Virus genome (UHGV): UHGV-1410950
Origin: a virus
Reading direction: 5' to 3' (one strand)
DNA: 64,000 nt
Positions 36,950 to 61,131 of this stretch are shown here, in pieces. Position 1 is the first letter of the stretch. Each line of letters opens with the position of its first letter. The notes below the pieces were generated by a model. It was not told where the DNA came from. It made no database searches and saw only the letters and a list, made by a program, of their open reading frames with translations. Position numbers and translations under genes: made by a program.

Positions 36950-37288
36950 TTAGTTACAGCGGACGGTGCCAAACGAATCGCGTCGGCAGGTGCTGCCATC
37001 GCTTCCCCGCGTCGTGCCGAAACTGTCCGTGCGCCAGCTGTTCCCATTGTTGTCACGGGTGGTGCCGAAACTGTCCGTGCGGTACACGGAGCCATCGCTG
37101 CCGCGCGTGGTACCAAACGAATCGGTGCGCCAGCTGTTTCCGTGATTATCGCGCGTTGTCCCGAAGGAGTCCGTGCGGTAGGTGGTACCATCATCACAGC
37201 GCGTGGTACCGAAGGAGTCAGATCGGCAGGTCAGCGCTGCGGCGTTAAAGCTGGCGGCAAGCGCCAGCAGGAGGATCAGTTTCTTCAT
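36950..37288 (-). CDS. secreted protein made of 16-aa tandem repeats (RTDSFGTTR-x7)
   Basis: Signal peptide MKKLILLLALAASFNAAAL, then 5.5 copies of RTDSFGTTR(D/G)(N/S).G(N/S).(W/Y). Underlying DNA has 48-bp periodicity. GAGAGG RBS. Confidence 0.65.
   Translation of the reverse strand: MKKLILLLALAASFNAAALTCRSDSFGTTRCDDGTTYRTDSFGTTRDNHGNSWRTDSFGTTRGSDGSVYRTDSFGTTRDNNGNSWRTDSFGTTRGSDGSTCRRDSFGTVRCN
36960..37250. repeat. intragenic 48-bp tandem DNA repeats (coding the 16-aa repeats)
   Basis: Repeated ...cgtgcgg.a....gga(g/a)(c/t)c... units at the nucleotide level. Confidence 0.7.
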
Positions 37289-37418
37289 AAGTACCTCTCT
37301 TAATAAAAATTGGCACATTGCCCCATGCGTTGCCACGGCTTGCATCGCCTTTCCCGGCCAGAGCATACCGCTCCCGGCAAAATATAATTACATCGCTATA
37401 TCCACGCTCACATGAATA

Positions 37419-37720
37419 TAACGCTGTATTAGCCCTTACCTCACCTTACCTCACCCTACCTCACCTTACCCTGCCATACCCGACCTCTGCTTTACTTCGC
37501 TATGCGCCCAAATCAGACGCATAACGCTGTATTAGCCCATGCCGCACCCAACCTCACCCTACCATACCCCACAAAGCCGTACCCAAACTTTACTTCGCTT
37601 TACCCCCGCGAACAGAGGTAAAACGCTGTATTAGCCCTAGCCTCACCCCTCCATACCGTGCCGTGCCTGACCGAACCGGGCCTTACCTCGACTTTATTTC
37701 GCTTTCAAATTTAATATAAT
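37419..37720. repeat. three tandem ~101-bp direct repeats (noncoding)
   Basis: Each unit starts with ATAACGCTGTATTAGCCC (37419, 37521, 37621). A ~55-nt C-rich, G-poor core follows with CCTCACC/CCATACC motifs. Each ends with ACTTTACTTCGCT. Confidence 0.85.
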
Positions 37721-38229
37721 TACGAACCAAAGACTGCATCTCGAATGTCTTTAATTTTCTTTTTATTCCCGCCTCCATCCAGTTTCATTTTGGCGTCGGC
37801 TAACCTGTTTTTTTCATGGTTAGTCATGCTGTCATCGCGGAGATTATTGAGCCGCAAGCGTGCCTTTTTATATCCACGCCTAATGGTCTTTTGCAATTCA
37901 TCGACAGCTACGCTGATTGCATCAGCGGCTGAGATCTGCTGATAGCCGATGCCAATAACTGCACGGAACTGAATTTTATGTTCCTCAGCCATGTGACGGA
38001 AAAATTCAGTCCGTCTTTTGAGGAATGTAACCTCCCATTGCTGGTGATCTTTTCTTTCACCAGAAGAAGGATAATCCGGGATTTCAAGCGCGGACTCAAA
38101 CCAACAGGTTGGGGTTACATCGCCGTCTTTATTTCCGTTAGCGATATATTTAGCCGCTGCTCTTTCTGCAAACCCAGACTGCGGACTATCTTCATCGAGA
38201 GAAATATCAATATTGTCAATATCAATCAT
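37720..38229 (-). CDS. hypothetical protein, distal gene of an AT-rich two-gene cassette
   Basis: 169-aa ORF. Low local GC. Start is 2 nt after the upstream stop. Confidence 0.55.
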   Translation of the reverse strand: MIDIDNIDISLDEDSPQSGFAERAAAKYIANGNKDGDVTPTCWFESALEIPDYPSSGERKDHQQWEVTFLKRRTEFFRHMAEEHKIQFRAVIGIGYQQISAADAISVAVDELQKTIRRGYKKARLRLNNLRDDSMTNHEKNRLADAKMKLDGGGNKKKIKDIRDAVFGS

Positions 38230-38230
38230 T

Positions 38231-38809
38231 TTATTCCACCTCGTCAGCGTAAATCACATCAAACCGCCCGAACTTTGGCCTGTAGTCGCAAATACCGATT
38301 TGAGTACCAGCTTCGATAAGTGCTTTCTTAACATCATGTGCGTCGATGTTTTTTTCATCGAACTGGATAATAAATTCCAGTGACCATTCATTAAATCTTG
38401 GTCTATAGCGCATAATTTTAGCCGCCCCCACCTTAACAGAGCGGGCATCATAGAATTTTTTATCCCACAACGACTCGATGCTTTTAGGCCCGTTATAAAT
38501 AAGCGGGATTTCGAGGCCGACAACCTCAACCGAACGCTTAAATAATGTTCCCAGCTTTGAAAGTTTAGCCGCTCCAATAAGAGCCGCTTCCACGATAGTT
38601 GTAGGGATAATAACTGATTCATCCCCAGCTAAATAAAGCGATGAGCGCCATTCGCTTTTTGCAATTTCGATATGGTCTTCATCGGTTTTTTTACGTTTAG
38701 CTGTCAGCAGCTTGTGCCGCTTCGTCAGCTCATTAAGTGGATCAGCAAATACATCAGCGTGCATAAGGAGTGGGCGGGAGCCCTCGATCTTGCATTTAAT
38801 GAAACTCAT
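38231..38809 (-). CDS. hypothetical protein, proximal gene of an AT-rich two-gene cassette
   Basis: 192-aa ORF with AAGGTAAGAAAT RBS. Own promoter upstream. Confidence 0.55.
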   Translation of the reverse strand: MSFIKCKIEGSRPLLMHADVFADPLNELTKRHKLLTAKRKKTDEDHIEIAKSEWRSSLYLAGDESVIIPTTIVEAALIGAAKLSKLGTLFKRSVEVVGLEIPLIYNGPKSIESLWDKKFYDARSVKVGAAKIMRYRPRFNEWSLEFIIQFDEKNIDAHDVKKALIEAGTQIGICDYRPKFGRFDVIYADEVE

Positions 38810-38834
38810 ATTTCTTACCTTGCCTTGCGTTTGA

Positions 38835-38872
38835 ATGTGAAAGGATTATCCATACAGTAACTGCAAAAATCA
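38835..38872 (-). promoter_or_regulatory. sigma70 promoter TTGATT-17-GATAAT for the AT-rich cassette
   Basis: Minus strand reads TTGATTtttgcagttactgtatgGATAAT, between terminator 38895-38919 and the ATG at 38809. Confidence 0.5.
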
Positions 38873-38894
38873 ACATCTTTTTTGATGCGCCCTT

Positions 38895-38919
38895 AAAAAA
38901 AAGCCCCGAATAACGGGGC
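38895..38919 (-). terminator. rho-independent terminator after gene 38925..39443
   Basis: gccccg-aataa-cggggc preceded on + by A8. Confidence 0.65.
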
Positions 38920-46491: not shown

Positions 46492-46500
46492 GGGATTCCC

Positions 46501-46971
46501 TTACTCAGGATTAAGTCCTTCACCATGCAGGTCATGCCATTCTTGGTGATGTTTTGGACAGAGGAAACGAACTGTTAAAGGTTCGTCATAATCATCATGA
46601 TGGGCATGGACATCAAGCGAGCCGCATTTCTCACATGGCTGCTTGGCTAAATGCCCGTCGCGTAAAGCGTTACCGACAGCTATATGCGCAGCTCGCTTCT
46701 TGGGGTTGCGCTCAATATAACGTTGTTTTGCGGCGTCTGCTTTTTCCTTGCCCTTACCTTTGGCATACACCTCACGGGCTTTTACCCGGTCTGGATGAAG
46801 GGCTCTTTGCTTGTCATAATCACGATAATGATCGCCATTATCATCCCGGTTTTTCTTCACATCCTTTTTAGTGCATTCTTTGCACTTATTAAGTCTTCCA
46901 TCAGCCATCTTCGGATGCTTATAATATTCATTCAGCGGCTTCGGTATGCCGCACTTCATGCAAGTTTTCAT
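46501..46971 (-). CDS. HNH endonuclease-like zinc-finger protein
   Basis: N-terminal CMKCG ... CKEC and C-terminal CEKCGSLDVHAHHDDY ... LCPKHHQEWH HNH-type motif. Confidence 0.55.
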   Translation of the reverse strand: MKTCMKCGIPKPLNEYYKHPKMADGRLNKCKECTKKDVKKNRDDNGDHYRDYDKQRALHPDRVKAREVYAKGKGKEKADAAKQRYIERNPKKRAAHIAVGNALRDGHLAKQPCEKCGSLDVHAHHDDYDEPLTVRFLCPKHHQEWHDLHGEGLNPE

Positions 46972-46987
46972 AAGACCTCATAATTAA

Positions 46988-47012
46988 AGAGCGCCCCGCA
47001 GGCGCTCTTTTT
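46988..47012. terminator. hairpin terminator downstream of ssb
   Basis: agagcgcc-ccgca-ggcgctct with a T5 run on +. The U-tract on the minus transcript is weaker. Confidence 0.4.
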
Positions 47013-47020
47013 GTTTGCGA

Positions 47021-47593
47021 TTAACTCAGCGCATAGATGGATTGTCTGCCAAACGGCAAATATTCAGGAGCAAATGGTATGTCGTCGTCAAAGTCAAGAG
47101 GCGGTTCGCTACCATTCGACGGTTGCCCGCCTTGGTTTTGCGGTGGACGCTGCTGCTGGCGTTGCTGCTGATTGCCCTGAGGCTGCTGCGGCTGGCCCCA
47201 ACCCCCTTGTTGCTGGCCTCCACCTTGGCCTTGTCCGCCCTGCTGGCCTTTGCTGTTCGGGCCTTTCTCGCCAAACTGGAAGGAGTTAGCGCGGATCTCA
47301 GTGATGTACTTGGTCACGCCATCCTGCTCCCAGCTGCGCGTCTGGAGTTGGCCCTGCACCATGATTTCATCGCCTTTGCGCATGTACTCGCCCACGACCT
47401 CGGCAGACTTATTCCACAGCACAACGCGATGCCATTCGGTCTTTTCTTTCTGCTCCCCGGTCTGCTTGTCTCTCCAGCGCTCAGAAGTCGCTACGCTGAG
47501 GGTACAGGTTGCGGTGCCGTTCGGCAGGTACTTAACCTCAGGATCACCACCCAGTCGGCCCTGTACAATAACCATGTTAATTGATGCGCCCAT
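47021..47593 (-). CDS. ssb: single-stranded DNA-binding protein
   Basis: OB-fold N-terminus. Gly/Gln-rich linker. Canonical C-terminal tip DDDIPF. Confidence 0.9.
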
Positions 47594-47606: not shown

Positions 47607-50390
47607 TTAGAAATATTGCGGCTCATCGCCGTTTTGTTGCGGTTTGAAATAATCCAGCACGCTGGCACCATTTTTGATAGCTGAATAGACAACGCGCATG
47701 GCGCTGATATCGTCCATAGTGAAGTTTCCGACCGGGATCCCCATGTGGGCTTCCAGCTGTTCCTCGTTGACGCCAAAGGCTGCAAACGCGGCAATAAGGC
47801 GCTCGCAGCGGTCTTTGAGCATCTGCTGCTCCTGCTCGATCTGGAGATAAACTTTCTTCATGCGGGCTTCCAGCATCTTGTGAGCCCACTGCGGCTTATA
47901 TCCACGCTCAGCAGCCAGCGCCAGCAGCTCGTCAAGTGTCTCAGCTCGCGCGGTCTCTTTGCGCTTCTGCGCGGACACGCGACGGGCTTCCTCCTTGGCG
48001 GCTTCCTTCTGGCGCTTCTTCATCATTTCCGGCGTCAGCTCCAGCATGTTCTCGTCGGAGTGATCCAGCTTGAGGGCTACTGCACGCTCAATCTCCGCGC
48101 CGCAGTCCGGGCAGACCATATCGACGCCTGACGCCGGGTTATTGAGGCGATGGATGCGCCCGGCTTCCTTACCCTCGCCGCGATAGAAGACATAGAAGCA
48201 TTTACCGCACTGCACCAGCGCACTGCTGGCGCTGCTTTTCTTCTCGGTAAAGTCCATATCGCTGTCCAGCGACCATTCGCGCTCCATTTCAGCCGGGCCG
48301 TGCTCGAAGATCATCCCGGCATGGTCGAGGACGTAGCAGCATTCTTTTCTCGGTGCCGGGCGCAGCCCGCGTCCGATAACCTGCAAATAGCTGGAGAGGG
48401 ACATGGAGAGGCGCAGGAGGATAATCACCTCGATCTCCGGCACATCCACGCCCTCGATCAGGATGCCGACGAAAGCGACCATCAGCAGCTCACGCCGGGC
48501 CAGTCTGCCCAGCACGTCAGCGCGGCGCTCGTCATCATCCTCACCGCAGAGCACTTCTGCCGGAATGCCTGCCCGGCTGAATTCATCCGCTACGTGAGTG
48601 GCGTGCGCGATGGTGACGCACCATGCGATCCCCGGTTTGCCATAGCACTTCGCCCGGTACTGCTTAACGGCGTCGCCGTTGAGCGCTGGCGTGTCCATGG
48701 CCTCCTCAACCTGCTGCTGGTTGTAGTCGCCCATCTTCGTGGTGAACTGCGAGGTATTGACGCGGGTTTCACCGACGAAATAGCGCGGACGTACCAGGAA
48801 TCCGCGACGAATCAGCTCACCAATAGAGATAACCTGAATCAGGCGATCAAAGTGCCCGCCATACTCGCGGCCCAGCGGCTTGTTATCCAGACGGCAAGGG
48901 GAGCCAGTAACGCCCAGCACTTTGGCGTTAGGCCAGTGGGCCAGAATCTTGTGATAAGTAGCTGCCGCCGACAGATGCGATTCGTCGATAACGATGATGT
49001 CAGGCGTGAAGGGGCATTTCTTGAGGCGGCGAGCCAGCGACTGAATAGACGCGACCTGCACCAGATGATGATATTGCTCGCGGTTCCCAGCCATAATAAT
49101 GCCGTGGGGAATACCGAAAGCGGACATTTTAGCCGACGCCTGCTTAATCAACAGATCGCGGTGCGCCAGCACTAATACGCGTCGGCCTTTCAAAGCCGCG
49201 TTCTTGGCAATTTCGCAAAACACGACCGTATTATGCGTTACGGTGAAGTCGCCCAGCATAAATAGGCGGTCGTTACCGGATAGCTCAAAGCCAAAGTATT
49301 CCCCCATCCCCACGGGCTCGACGGTGATCCCGGTCAGGAGGACATCTTTGATTTGCTTGCGCGGAGTTGCTTGCTTGCGCGGCAATCTGCACGGGATTTC
49401 GTCAATACTCCCGTTAATCTGGCAGCTGAAATACTCCCCTGCCGATCCGGTATTCGTACAGGTTTTCTTTACCCGGCTCTTGTACGCGGAGAATCCCAGC
49501 GAGCGAGCGATGAAGATCACACCATCCATCAGGCGCTCAGATTTGAGCGTCAGGGCGTACTCTTTGCCATCGTAATAGCCATCGGTATCGAGGATACCTG
49601 CCAGCAATTCCAGACGCTCAAAGCGATTCCCGGTCAGATAATCATGGGGGATGTGCTTATTACGGAAAAGGCCATATTTGCGCAAGCCATTACCAAACGA
49701 GCAACCACCTCGCCCAGTCTTCCCGTACTTGTTGCAGAGGTAAAGGTATCTTGAGCCATGACTGTTAAACTTGTTATTCACTTCCATTCCGATGCGGTGA
49801 GCATACATCGTTACCTCATCGATCAGCTCATCGTCACCCAGAGTGAAGGCGATATGATGACTTGAGCCGTCACCCAGCCACATGCCCAAAATATACGGGG
49901 GGATAGATAAGGGCTTTCCGCCCGGAAAATCAACCGGGGCCCGCCAGCCTTTTGCAACGTGCTTAAACGTGGATGACGACCGCAGATAGTCGGCTACCGA
50001 AATATTGACAATATCCCCTGCCCGGTAGATTTCTCCGTTACCAGCAGTGACGCGCTTGCGCCCGGTATTGGTGATTTTCAGGCTGAGGATGTGGCTTTCA
50101 TTCACGGTGTAGGCGTCGCCTTTAGCTGGCGCGATCCGGTACATTTGTTCAGTGCCACGGGCAAGCGTTTCGACACGCCTTGGATGGCTGTCAGGCCCCA
50201 TAAGGAGGTCGCCAGCGCTAACGTCCTGCACCATCTTAATGGTGCCGTCATACATCATCACTGGCGTATCTTTGGCGAGGCATTTGCCCGCACCTGTAGC
50301 CATGACCAAAAGCACACCGCGAACCTCGCGGAAGGCGACGCGTGTCGCACTGACAGCATCGCCCTGATAATCACGCAGCTCAAAAGCCAT
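47607..50390 (-). CDS. SF2 DEAH-box DNA helicase with a LAGLIDADG intein inserted in the Walker A P-loop
   Basis: Exteins carry MATGAGK|T (Walker A), VIDESH (motif II) and a C-terminal Zn-ribbon. A 351-aa intein lies between GAGK and T. Confidence 0.85.
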   Translation of the reverse strand: MAFELRDYQGDAVSATRVAFREVRGVLLVMATGAGKCLAKDTPVMMYDGTIKMVQDVSAGDLLMGPDSHPRRVETLARGTEQMYRIAPAKGDAYTVNESHILSLKITNTGRKRVTAGNGEIYRAGDIVNISVADYLRSSSTFKHVAKGWRAPVDFPGGKPLSIPPYILGMWLGDGSSHHIAFTLGDDELIDEVTMYAHRIGMEVNNKFNSHGSRYLYLCNKYGKTGRGGCSFGNGLRKYGLFRNKHIPHDYLTGNRFERLELLAGILDTDGYYDGKEYALTLKSERLMDGVIFIARSLGFSAYKSRVKKTCTNTGSAGEYFSCQINGSIDEIPCRLPRKQATPRKQIKDVLLTGITVEPVGMGEYFGFELSGNDRLFMLGDFTVTHNTVVFCEIAKNAALKGRRVLVLAHRDLLIKQASAKMSAFGIPHGIIMAGNREQYHHLVQVASIQSLARRLKKCPFTPDIIVIDESHLSAAATYHKILAHWPNAKVLGVTGSPCRLDNKPLGREYGGHFDRLIQVISIGELIRRGFLVRPRYFVGETRVNTSQFTTKMGDYNQQQVEEAMDTPALNGDAVKQYRAKCYGKPGIAWCVTIAHATHVADEFSRAGIPAEVLCGEDDDERRADVLGRLARRELLMVAFVGILIEGVDVPEIEVIILLRLSMSLSSYLQVIGRGLRPAPRKECCYVLDHAGMIFEHGPAEMEREWSLDSDMDFTEKKSSASSALVQCGKCFYVFYRGEGKEAGRIHRLNNPASGVDMVCPDCGAEIERAVALKLDHSDENMLELTPEMMKKRQKEAAKEEARRVSAQKRKETARAETLDELLALAAERGYKPQWAHKMLEARMKKVYLQIEQEQQMLKDRCERLIAAFAAFGVNEEQLEAHMGIPVGNFTMDDISAMRVVYSAIKNGASVLDYFKPQQNGDEPQYF
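49230..50282 (-). other. intein (351 aa) with two LAGLIDADG homing-endonuclease blocks
   Basis: N-terminal splice block CLAKDTPV. Blocks ILGMWLGDGS and LLAGILDTDGYYDG. C-terminal FTVTHN followed by +1 Thr. Confidence 0.85.
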
Positions 50391-58773: not shown

Positions 58774-61131
58774 TTATTTTTGCGCTGATTCCAGCTGTTT
58801 AACGCGGGCGCTCAATACCTTAATAGCTGCCAGCGCATCGAGCAGGAGCACGTTATTGTCGAGCGTTTTCGTGGTAACAGAATCCTTACCATCAGCAGTA
58901 ATAACGGTAACATCTTTCACATACTGAGGGTCAATCTTCTCCAGATCCTGAGCAATGAAACCACGTCGCAGTCTGCGATTTTCATCACGCTTAAAGATGA
59001 ATGTTACTGGATCCATGGCGTCGATATTAGCCAGCGCATCTTCACCAGAAACATAGGTCACATCATCTTTAATATTGCGGTCAGATACGATAGACATCGC
59101 ATAGGTAAATGCTTCTGTAGATCCGTTGTTCTGGACTCTGGCACCATCAAGCTGACCATTCATATTAAACTGAAAACGGGCAAAGTTACCGTTATCGCCC
59201 ATAATCTGAATTACGCCAAAACCAAAACTTTGCTGACCTTGCGCTCGAACATAATGACCAAATCCAATACGTTGAGGCCAGCCATCTGGTCTGGATCCTT
59301 GGTGTGCGATTAACAAATAAGCATTATCACCAGTACCAGCACTAGCAGGAAAATCAAAAGGTGCTGCCGAACCAGCCGCGCCCTGACTCCAGTTAATCCA
59401 TCCAGTAGGCGCATAAGGAGCCTGGAACCTTGTTGATTTCAGCGTCCCGTCAGCGGCGAAAATCGTATTGTTCCCGTTCGCCGTAATAGTCAGGTTGTTA
59501 GTCACCCCCATGTTGATGGTGACATTGCGACCTGTATCAATGATGCCGTTACTGCCGAACTGGTAATACGCGCCATCGCTGACGGTTCCCGGCACGGTAA
59601 GGTTTTCTACCGCAAGGACAGCAGAATGGCTTGTGCCATATTTAGCCTGTGAAAAAAGTTTCGTGCGATAACGGTCAAGACCACCGATCTGGTAAGCACT
59701 GATTACTTGACCACCATATACCAGCGTATTATTTGCAGGTGCAGCGGTATCACCATTGATCACATTGAAATTGGTATTCTGCGCAGAGAAGGTGCCACTG
59801 GCGCGGATGATCCAGATGCCGACCGCATGGTTAGGGTAGAGGTCGCCAATATTATCTGCGCCACCATTAACGGCGTTTCCACCGATTGACGTCTGATACT
59901 GAGCACCGCGACCAAATGTTTTGCTTTTCCTATTTAAGTCAATATCGTAGCCGTAGTTATTAGGAGCGTAACCAGCAACATTATCGACCGAACCTGATTT
60001 TAATTGGAATCTTGATTGATCCGGCCCTGTACCATTAACTACACCACCGGAACCAATCTGGAATTGCGAACCAGTTAAGCCAGACCAATACCCAGTTACA
60101 TTCGGAACGGATTGAGCCCAGACCTGCCCCACTGACGGCTCAGATGGTGAACCAGATGAACCAGAAAGGAACAGGTGCTTAATGGCATTCGCCGTCATCC
60201 CGTTAAGGTCTGGCACGCGGAACCAAGCGTCTGGGGTAGCGCTCGCCGGAGCCGTCCCTGCCGCTCCTCCTTGCGAATAACTTGAGCGCCATGCACATGG
60301 ACGTGCTGCATCACCGCTATTGATCCAGAGGGCTTCTGTCTGGCTGTTAAGCATTCCACTATCAACAGCCGCAGCGAGATCAGAGAATGTTAAGCGGCTT
60401 AATACTTGACCATCGGCAGGAACATAACCAGCAGGAATCTTTGCGCGTGTACCGTTGAACCACTCAACCGCGCCGATGAAGTTATTCATCACGCCATTCA
60501 TGGAGGCACCACCTGCGCCGCCAGAAGCAGCACGCAGCTGTTTCATGGTTACAGCGTCATAATCACCTGCACCATCGCCACCTAAGCGCAGCGGGCCGCT
60601 GAGCGCGGTTAATGAGGTGATATCGTTATTGATGCCAGACGCAGCCAGCCCGGTGATCGCCCCGGTCTTGCCGTTGACGCTGGTCACGTTGGTGCTGGTC
60701 AGCTCGCGCCAGTTGCTCAGTGTGCTTGGCGGCATCTGGGTGAGGATGAAGGTTTTACCCAGATCCTCACGGATAGCGATATCGCCGCGCTCACATTGCA
60801 GGCCCAGCATAGAAGCCTCATTGGGAACCGGGAAAGTGTCTACCACCGCGATGGACGGCATCAGTGAGCCGTCGATCTTCCCGTCCGGGCCAGTCTGCAC
60901 CACTGTAGATGGCAGGTTAGCTTTGTTCAGCTTGCCCTGCGCATCCAGCTTGGCGATGACATCAGACAGCATATCATCGGCAATTTTCCCGGTTGTCTGA
61001 TCACGCGTTACCACAAGCACGTCGAGCAGATTAAACGTGTCGCGCAGGCGCTCCACGTCATCTTGCAGGAAGTTGTCAGTGAACGGCAGTAAAAGCCCCA
61101 GACGGGGCGTTTTCTGGTCTACTAAAGCCAT
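58774..61131 (-). CDS. tail fiber with C-terminal intramolecular-chaperone (peptidase S74-like) domain
   Basis: C-terminal ...RRGFIAQDLEKIDPQYV... matches S74 chaperone motifs. Central Gly/Asn/Thr-rich beta-helix-like repeats. Confidence 0.7.
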   Translation of the reverse strand: MALVDQKTPRLGLLLPFTDNFLQDDVERLRDTFNLLDVLVVTRDQTTGKIADDMLSDVIAKLDAQGKLNKANLPSTVVQTGPDGKIDGSLMPSIAVVDTFPVPNEASMLGLQCERGDIAIREDLGKTFILTQMPPSTLSNWRELTSTNVTSVNGKTGAITGLAASGINNDITSLTALSGPLRLGGDGAGDYDAVTMKQLRAASGGAGGASMNGVMNNFIGAVEWFNGTRAKIPAGYVPADGQVLSRLTFSDLAAAVDSGMLNSQTEALWINSGDAARPCAWRSSYSQGGAAGTAPASATPDAWFRVPDLNGMTANAIKHLFLSGSSGSPSEPSVGQVWAQSVPNVTGYWSGLTGSQFQIGSGGVVNGTGPDQSRFQLKSGSVDNVAGYAPNNYGYDIDLNRKSKTFGRGAQYQTSIGGNAVNGGADNIGDLYPNHAVGIWIIRASGTFSAQNTNFNVINGDTAAPANNTLVYGGQVISAYQIGGLDRYRTKLFSQAKYGTSHSAVLAVENLTVPGTVSDGAYYQFGSNGIIDTGRNVTINMGVTNNLTITANGNNTIFAADGTLKSTRFQAPYAPTGWINWSQGAAGSAAPFDFPASAGTGDNAYLLIAHQGSRPDGWPQRIGFGHYVRAQGQQSFGFGVIQIMGDNGNFARFQFNMNGQLDGARVQNNGSTEAFTYAMSIVSDRNIKDDVTYVSGEDALANIDAMDPVTFIFKRDENRRLRRGFIAQDLEKIDPQYVKDVTVITADGKDSVTTKTLDNNVLLLDALAAIKVLSARVKQLESAQK

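Follow-up and report, generated by a model that had tools for sequence, protein, structure and literature searches.

P-loop ATPases are in general enriched in inteins (Novikova et al., PMC4760082), and in the work of Kelley et al. 2016 on terminase inteins an insertion between the invariant lysine of the loop and a nucleophilic threonine (Lys^Thr, where ^ marks the insertion site) is referred to as the 'classic' P-loop insertion (PMC5050341). The described intein with a solved structure that comes closest to the one considered here is PI-SceI, the VMA1 intein of Saccharomyces cerevisiae (PDB 1vde, 1lws), in which a Hint splicing domain is interrupted by a double-motif LAGLIDADG endonuclease. 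The present subject is a superfamily 2 (SF2) helicase gene in a stretch of 64,000 nucleotides from the virus genome UHGV-1410950, and "the window" is used throughout for the whole of that stretch. The coding sequence for the P-loop of this helicase is split by an insert that is very probably a class 1 intein of the PI-SceI type, with a double-motif LAGLIDADG homing endonuclease embedded in it.

The helicase precursor and its insert

The helicase precursor is encoded on the minus strand, with a GGAGAG ribosome-binding site 4 nt 5' of its ATG and a reading frame that is uninterrupted across all 927 codons. The open reading frame (ORF) and its parts are as follows:

47607..50390, minus strand: ORF of the helicase precursor, 927 aa and 103.3 kDa, made up of N-extein, intein and C-extein
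50283..50390, minus strand: N-extein, 36 aa, with the C-terminal residues ...LLVMATGAGK, of which GAGK (50283-50294) is the first half of Walker A
49230..50282, minus strand: predicted intein, 351 aa and 39.0 kDa, assigned on Pfam matches, the match to PI-SceI, an AlphaFold2 model searched with Foldseek and its exact absence in sister phages
47607..49229, minus strand: C-extein, 540 aa plus stop, the first residue of which (Thr+1) completes GAGK-T
48975-48992, minus strand: DESH (motif II) of the C-extein
48360-48383, minus strand: QVIGRGLR (motif VI) of the C-extein
48102-48209, minus strand: CxxC...CxxC zinc ribbon of the C-extein

The N-terminus of the precursor reads MAFELRDYQGDAVSATRVAFREVRGVLLVMATGAGK with CLAKDTPV directly after it, and the insert, which extends from residue 37 (Cys37) to residue 387 of the precursor (351 aa, 1053 nt), ends in LFMLGDFTVTHN and is followed by TVVFCEIAKNA. 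A sequence-only reading of this DNA had already placed a 351-aa insert at 49230-50282, and the translation of the ORF agrees with it to the base; the peptide strings that it quoted were all found where it had put them, its sole omission being the strand, which is minus. The products it had expected from splicing, a protein of ~64 kDa and a 39-kDa intein, are also in agreement with the masses computed here, the ligated exteins amounting to 576 aa and 64.4 kDa and the intein to 39.0 kDa.

The insert is matched by three Pfam models, Hom_end_hint (PF05203) with 61.9 bits against a curated cut-off of 32.1, Hom_end (PF05204) with 39.1 bits against 21.1 and LAGLIDADG_3 (PF14528) with 29.8 bits against 22.5. 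The Hint splicing domain occupies approximately aa 1-120 and 315-351, with the LAGLIDADG endonuclease domain (approximately aa 125-300) lying between its two halves. The blocks by which such elements are recognised are all in place, and their conservation is given here for an alignment of 78 relatives:

50259..50282, minus strand: block A, CLAKDTPV, with the nucleophile Cys1, which is present in 78/78 relatives
50079..50108, minus strand: block B, TVNESHILSL, with Asn61 and His64, both invariant
49863..49892, minus strand: LAGLIDADG motif 1, ILGMWLGDGS, with the predicted catalytic Asp138, aligning with LLGLWIGDGL of PI-SceI
49575..49607, minus strand: LAGLIDADG motif 2, LLAGILDTDGY, with the predicted catalytic Asp232, aligning with FLAGLIDSDGY of PI-SceI
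49230..49301, minus strand: blocks F and G, EYFGFELSGNDRLFMLGD-FTVTHN, with the terminal His350-Asn351, Phe346 to Asn351 being invariant

Across the same alignment C1, N61, H64, G139, D232, G235, H350 and N351 are invariant, with D138, K209, D234 and Thr+1 conserved in at least 90% of the relatives. Block B is presumably the counterpart of the N-A-T-H of PI-SceI (N76/T78/H79 in its numbering). PI-SceI is the best solved relative of the insert by sequence (E 3.4e-19), and the alignment of KHIPHD in the insert with KNIPSF in PI-SceI also matches the lysine of the KxIP motif.

The predicted fold points the same way. The AlphaFold2 model of the intein, built on the 78-sequence alignment, has a pLDDT of 94.5 and a pTM of 0.92, and the top matches found for it with Foldseek are PI-SceI (E 8.7e-27, TMq 0.81), the TliVMA intein and PI-PfuI, with half-matches to the Hint-only Prp8 and gp41-1 inteins and, for the endonuclease half, to I-DmoI. 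Helices at 129-138 and 220-234 of the model are each followed by beta-sheets, which fits the alpha-beta-beta-alpha-beta-beta-alpha pseudo-dimeric fold. It is apparent that the features of a class 1 intein are found together here (Cys1, the histidine of block B, HN with Thr+1, a Hint fold and exact empty homologues), as are those of a double-motif LAGLIDADG endonuclease (two motifs with a catalytic aspartate, the pseudo-dimeric fold and signatures of mobility). The sequence-only reading had proposed a LAGLIDADG intein in the Walker A motif of an SF2 helicase, and Pfam, the sequence match to PI-SceI and the predicted fold all agree with this; both of the LAGLIDADG blocks it had pointed out are confirmed, and its description of the P-loop as a classic site for inteins accords with the name that Lys^Thr is given in PMC5050341.

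Three other kinds of element were considered and rejected. A group I intron with an endonuclease ORF does not fit with a continuous reading frame and a Hint domain, a class 3 intein does not fit with the presence of Cys1, and a bacterial intein-like (BIL) domain was set aside as a conserved host site, canonical HN+Thr junctions and an endonuclease are all present.

The host protein is also recognisable once the insert is taken out. The ResIII match is split in the full precursor, and splicing in silico gives one contiguous match (residues 3-147, E 6.6e-25), with DEAD and Helicase_C also scoring on the spliced sequence (Pfam). The spliced helicase has motif I (GAGKT), motif II (DESH), motif VI (QVIGRGLR) and the CxxC...CxxC zinc ribbon, and is assigned to phrog_16, DNA helicase, in PHROGs. 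With the intein-less homologue P0003 as the query the closest solved relative is RadD of E. coli (6jde, E 1.9e-30); the RadD equivalog NF053632 of NCBIfam gives 164 bits for P0003 and 143 bits for the precursor against a cut-off of 720, and by these scores the protein would be classed as a RadD-like SF2 helicase, not RadD proper.

From the established biochemistry of inteins and LAGLIDADG enzymes a pathway for splicing and homing can be proposed. Translation would produce a 103-kDa precursor with its ATP-binding loop split, which whilst unspliced is presumably unable to bind ATP productively. The Hint domain would then carry out an N-S acyl shift at Cys1 and a transesterification onto the hydroxyl of Thr+1, with cyclisation of Asn351 and an O-N shift completing the process, to give a 39-kDa free intein and a 64-kDa helicase with the GAGKT loop intact. 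The claim of the sequence-only reading that the helicase can function only when spliced is, like splicing itself, an inference. The endonuclease of the freed intein would cut the P-loop coding sequence of intein-less helicase alleles in co-infecting relatives, and repair off the intein-bearing copy would result in the intein plus a few dozen bases of its flank being copied in.

Empty alleles and apparent movement of the intein

A megablast search of deposited phage genomes with the gene gave two matches, Enterobacter phage phiT5282EW and Escherichia phage ECML-606-1, in each of which 1731 nt (2784 minus 1053) are aligned, or 62% of the query. Both empty alleles are in register, reading GGT AAG ^ ACC/ACT GTT, which is GAGK^T, with the intein as the only gap. 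The earlier claim that Thr is the +1 residue that restores GAGK-T is thus borne out by alleles that read GAGK-T across the insertion site. The N-extein protein is the same as residues 1-36 of the intein-less alleles, and the spliced protein of the window is identical to that of phiT5282EW at 573/577 positions and to that of ECML-606-1 at 572/577, with the nucleotide differences almost all synonymous. Colinearity with phiT5282EW, at ~95% identity, extends over the whole window, in which 49234-50283 is one of eight window-specific stretches, and both deposited genomes of this phage lineage (phiT5282EW / ECML-606-1 type, ~95 kb) are free of the intein.

These exact empty alleles make the element an insertion relative to its close kin, and with two such relatives having the same gene minus the exact insert an assembly chimera or a chance ORF was rejected. 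With three Pfam models above their cut-offs, a ResIII match that is contiguous once spliced and two phages that lack precisely 1053 nt, the insertion is far beyond chance. The plasmid and complete E. coli genome collections gave no match in a megablast search with the whole gene, and therefore, as far as these sets go, the window does not belong to a known plasmid or prophage. The absence of the exact allele from the phage, plasmid and E. coli collections searched is what might be expected if the insertion were an artefact of assembly or sequencing, and one could also think of an in-frame insert that is not an intein, for instance a BIL domain or a free-standing endonuclease gene that has become fused, but such explanations are barely credible for a precise in-frame insertion with canonical splice junctions, in which a Hint domain encloses the endonuclease domain as in PI-SceI, when two independent assemblies (L008 and L013, below) have an intein in this gene at the very same codon and homologous inteins are at the same site in hundreds of phage genomes.

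Helicase genes that are 94-97% identical in nucleotide sequence exist in three states, these being empty, with the intein of the window (intein A) and with a second intein (intein B). Intein B is found on the metagenomic scaffold L013 (ENA ERZ28614676 scaffold_9590), of which the helicase DNA is 94-97% identical to that of the window and the intein 69%. The L013 intein is 99.2% identical in nucleotides to the intein of contig L008 (protein P0001), whereas the exteins of L013 and L008 are only 77-87% identical, and from this contrast intein B has evidently crossed recently between helicases that differ by ~14%. Over at least 72 nt leading up to the junction L013 does not differ from the empty allele of phiT5282EW, 3' of the intein there are ~37 nt of L008-type silent variants, and then the sequence is of the phiT5282EW type again; judged by this pattern the ~37-nt tract is a textbook co-conversion tract.

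The copy of intein B in L013 has a feature of its own, an in-frame TAG at precursor codon 340 (approximately nt 1023-1025 of the locus) where L008 has GAG, because of which the L013 helicase is called as two ORFs (340 aa, and 523 aa, the latter being P0002). This TAG is either a sequencing error or the sign of a truly inactivated intein-helicase.

Around the window's own intein the silent differences from phiT5282EW are concentrated in two flanks:

49173..49229, minus strand: 3' flank of the insertion site, 12 silent differences from phiT5282EW, putative co-conversion tract
50283..50298, minus strand: 5' flank of the insertion site, 5 silent differences from phiT5282EW, putative co-conversion tract

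Thus 17 of the 53 nucleotide differences between the window and phiT5282EW lie in the 111 nt that surround the junction (nt 93-165 of the spliced coding sequence), all of them synonymous, and this clustering (Fisher p 7e-9) was reached in 0/5000 permutations. It appears that the element is mobile in this phage group, the case being strongest for intein B and indirect for the allele in the window.

Two more small clusters of silent differences, seen in comparison with both phiT5282EW and ECML-606-1, are found further into the C-extein at nt 242-317 and 377-389 of the spliced coding sequence (window ~48665-48812). They may be further patches of mosaic recombination or parts of a longer, discontinuous conversion tract.

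A number of points count against the proposal of a working and mobile intein. It is from conservation that splicing, the activity of the endonuclease and its target site are deduced, and in NCBIfam no generic intein model was above its cut-off, an intein-containing radical SAM model being matched only weakly and in part. With P0003 (empty and more distant) as the outgroup the junction patch is only partially polarised, the window base being derived at 10/18 positions, in agreement with the outgroup at 4/18 and uninformative at 4/18, and it is likely, not proven, that the window is the derived side; when the flanks are set against distant intein-bearing alleles the synonymous sites are saturated and the polarity of the patch is not readable there. 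A donor for the exact intein allele of the window was not found by tblastn of phage genomes, by a search of 5.8 billion proteins or in IMG/VR, and for this reason the flank patch cannot be assigned to a source. The ratio of nonsynonymous to synonymous change (dN/dS) between inteins A and B (P0001) is ~0.07 overall, with a range of 0.07-0.09 for the Hint and endonuclease parts, 0.088 in the endonuclease, and 0.077 for the exteins, figures that are only rough as dS between the two inteins is near saturation (proportion of synonymous differences, pS, 0.73); the comparison with the intein of phage Touem01, with a pS >0.75, is beyond the calculation of dN/dS.

These points bear on whether the endonuclease is still active. 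It could be that the intein splices and is inherited only vertically, its endonuclease no longer active, and that it persists as imprecise loss would destroy the P-loop. In the homing-cycle model the endonuclease decays after fixation, which would be in keeping with this, yet the intein is not fixed here, with empty alleles coexisting in sister phages. A donor or second copy of the exact intein A allele was not found in the collections searched, but the sister allele, intein B, moved recently between diverged helicases and a dense patch of silent differences flanks the junction in the window itself. Similarly, the saturation of dS leaves purifying selection on the endonuclease domain only roughly estimated, but the value of 0.088 is near those of the Hint domain, and both catalytic aspartates and the aligned lysine are intact and conserved family-wide. 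Loss of the endonuclease activity is an unlikely alternative.

That the intein is splicing-dead, and the helicase gene effectively a pseudogene with a dead insertion, is highly improbable. The in-frame TAG of L013 means that broken copies may exist, but in the window all 927 codons are open, none of Cys1, Asn61/His64, His350-Asn351 and Thr+1 is missing, the protein sequence of the exteins shares 99% identity with empty alleles of working length, the differences being almost only synonymous, and dN/dS is low.

It is also conceivable, if quite improbable, that the intein is more than a passenger, with its endonuclease serving as an interference weapon or with conditional splicing timing the activation of the helicase during infection. 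If the former were true, the essential helicase gene of the near-identical intein-less ECML-606-1 and phiT5282EW would be cut in mixed infections and the inheritance of genomes biased; if the latter, Cys1 might be expected to be redox- or metal-sensitive. In either case the empty state and the two intein alleles would reflect an ongoing contest and not neutral homing.

With an intein that splices and still homes as the preferred reading, this phage lineage serves as a compact illustration, taken from nature, of the homing cycle with visible co-conversion tracts, the phenomenon itself not being new. As cultured intein-less relatives exist, it is a possible test system for intein homing in co-infecting phages.

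The wider family and the surrounding genes

The intein of the window is of a very common kind. A tblastn search with the intein gave matches in 710 phage records, which were full length in 645, and an intein occupies the same GxGK^C...FTVTHN^T site, after the first 33-38 residues of a homologous helicase, in Pseudomonas Touem01, Vibrio 1.009.O, Klebsiella MEW1, E. coli Bas95 and Salmonella Kenya-K9. In these five representatives identity to the window is higher in the intein (48-61%) than in the exteins (19-48%). The search of 5.8 billion proteins gave 6892 matches, with nearly all of the best 120 joining Hint, endonuclease and helicase domains, and amongst 71 full-length loci from IMG/VR the C...HN^T signature is present in 64 and GxGK lies directly upstream in 54, with internal stops in none. 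The closest inteins to the window allele are 60.7% identical in deposited phage genomes (Touem01), 74% identical in amino acids in the 5.8-billion-protein search (the metagenomic P0001) and 55% in IMG/VR, and inteins of mycobacteriophage terminases are distant homologues with ~27% identity over the full length.

Such inteins have been recognised in database records before, with Jerseyvirus homologues named 'intein-containing helicase' and 'putative intein containing helicase precursor' in GenBank and the Bas95 record having a 'similar to intein' feature. Literature searches on the names of related phages gave nothing on the helicase or the intein, and a search for a published account of the Salmonella-phage helicase intein found no dedicated paper in the literature that was covered. 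The window intein is a new allele and a regular member of a widespread family that is annotated already, and its insertion site is of the type best known for inteins.

Many intein homologues at GxGK^T sites are on IMG/VR contigs named GVMAG-* (L018, L022, L025, L030 and others), which are giant-virus metagenome bins, and these may be true giant-virus genes or misbinned phage contigs. A further group of homologous helicases (P0019, P0053, P0057, P0077, P0084 and P0109) is 940-1190 aa long with extra Hint/intein domains (PF07591, PF14890), a sign that these proteins may have a second intein inserted elsewhere.

As similarity searches are dominated by the intein, homologues have often been misnamed, the labels on deposited homologues being hypothetical protein, homing endonuclease, exonuclease and terminase large subunit. 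Thus the helicase of JD001 (NC_020204.1) is a 'terminase large subunit' in RefSeq, that of Vibrio 1.009.O a 'homing endonuclease' and that of Bas95 an 'exonuclease', whilst some mycobacteriophage terminases are named 'exonuclease' or 'HNH endonuclease'; records with such names include MG592395.1, PQ850607.1 and NC_022059.1. The intein of the window on its own matches three PHROG families of 'terminase large subunit'. For the gene described here the name intein-containing RadD-like helicase precursor is proposed.

The helicase gene is flanked by a gene for a single-stranded DNA-binding protein (SSB; 47021..47593, minus strand) and a small ORF, and further out there are a divergently transcribed DUF3799/RecE-like exonuclease and an SMC/RecF-like ATPase. 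The order of genes around the helicase is common to phiT5282EW, Touem01 and metagenomic contigs.

Other parts of the window also stand out, several of them by departing from phiT5282EW. The region 46498-47132 has no match in that phage and spans the Gly/Gln-rich C-terminal part of the SSB gene plus downstream sequence. At 37289-38895 there are 1.6 kb absent from phiT5282EW, with minus-strand ORFs at 37720..38229 (169 aa) and 38231..38809 (192 aa), and this stretch may be an accessory or moron-type cassette. A 138-aa ORF at 36950-37366 on the minus strand has a signal-peptide-like N-terminus and ~8 tandem copies of (R)TDSFGTTR(x5-6), and looks like a secreted or lipoprotein-like repeat protein. 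Within the ORF at 58774..61131 (minus strand, 785 aa) the region 58784-60408, the C-terminal two-thirds of a tail-fibre-like protein, is without a nucleotide match in phiT5282EW, the N-terminal part of the gene and the downstream sequence matching at ~95%, and this looks like the swap of a receptor-binding module.

Comparison with described inteins

The likeness is greatest to the inteins of other phage SF2 helicases, such as those of the Jerseyvirus type in the Salmonella phages 5sent1 (MT653144) and PIZ SAE-01E2 (MN336266), and those of Klebsiella JD001/MEW1, E. coli Bas95 and Pseudomonas Touem01. These are 44-61% identical in amino acids over the full length and interrupt a homologous helicase near residue 36, at a GxGK^C...FTVTHN^T site identical to that of the window. 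The TerL1-a inteins of mycobacteriophage terminases (PMC5050341) are detectable homologues at ~27%, but their host is the large terminase and the relation is a distant one. With its Cys1, its Thr+1 and a length of 351 aa, the window intein is an additional candidate for protein-engineering collections.

The mycobacterial DnaB intein DnaBi1 also occupies the P-loop of a helicase, and according to its description (PMC6195587), and to Novikova et al., binding of ATP requires splicing. DnaB is an SF4 hexameric helicase and its inteins have been shown to be conditional (stress-responsive), whereas the helicase of the window belongs to SF2.

In architecture the window intein is closest to PI-SceI, which has the same Hint domain interrupted by a double-motif LAGLIDADG endonuclease and likewise resides in a P-loop ATPase. 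Common to the two are Cys1, the N-x-(S/T)-H of block B, the C-terminal His-Asn, the LAGLIDADG aspartates and the KxIP lysine. Their identity is ~21%, however, and at 351 aa against 454 aa the window intein is 103 residues shorter, and its surface and DNA-recognition elaborations are thus reduced. The +1 residue is threonine in the window and cysteine in PI-SceI, the host is a phage SF2 helicase in the one case and a eukaryotic V-ATPase subunit in the other, and the target sequences differ.

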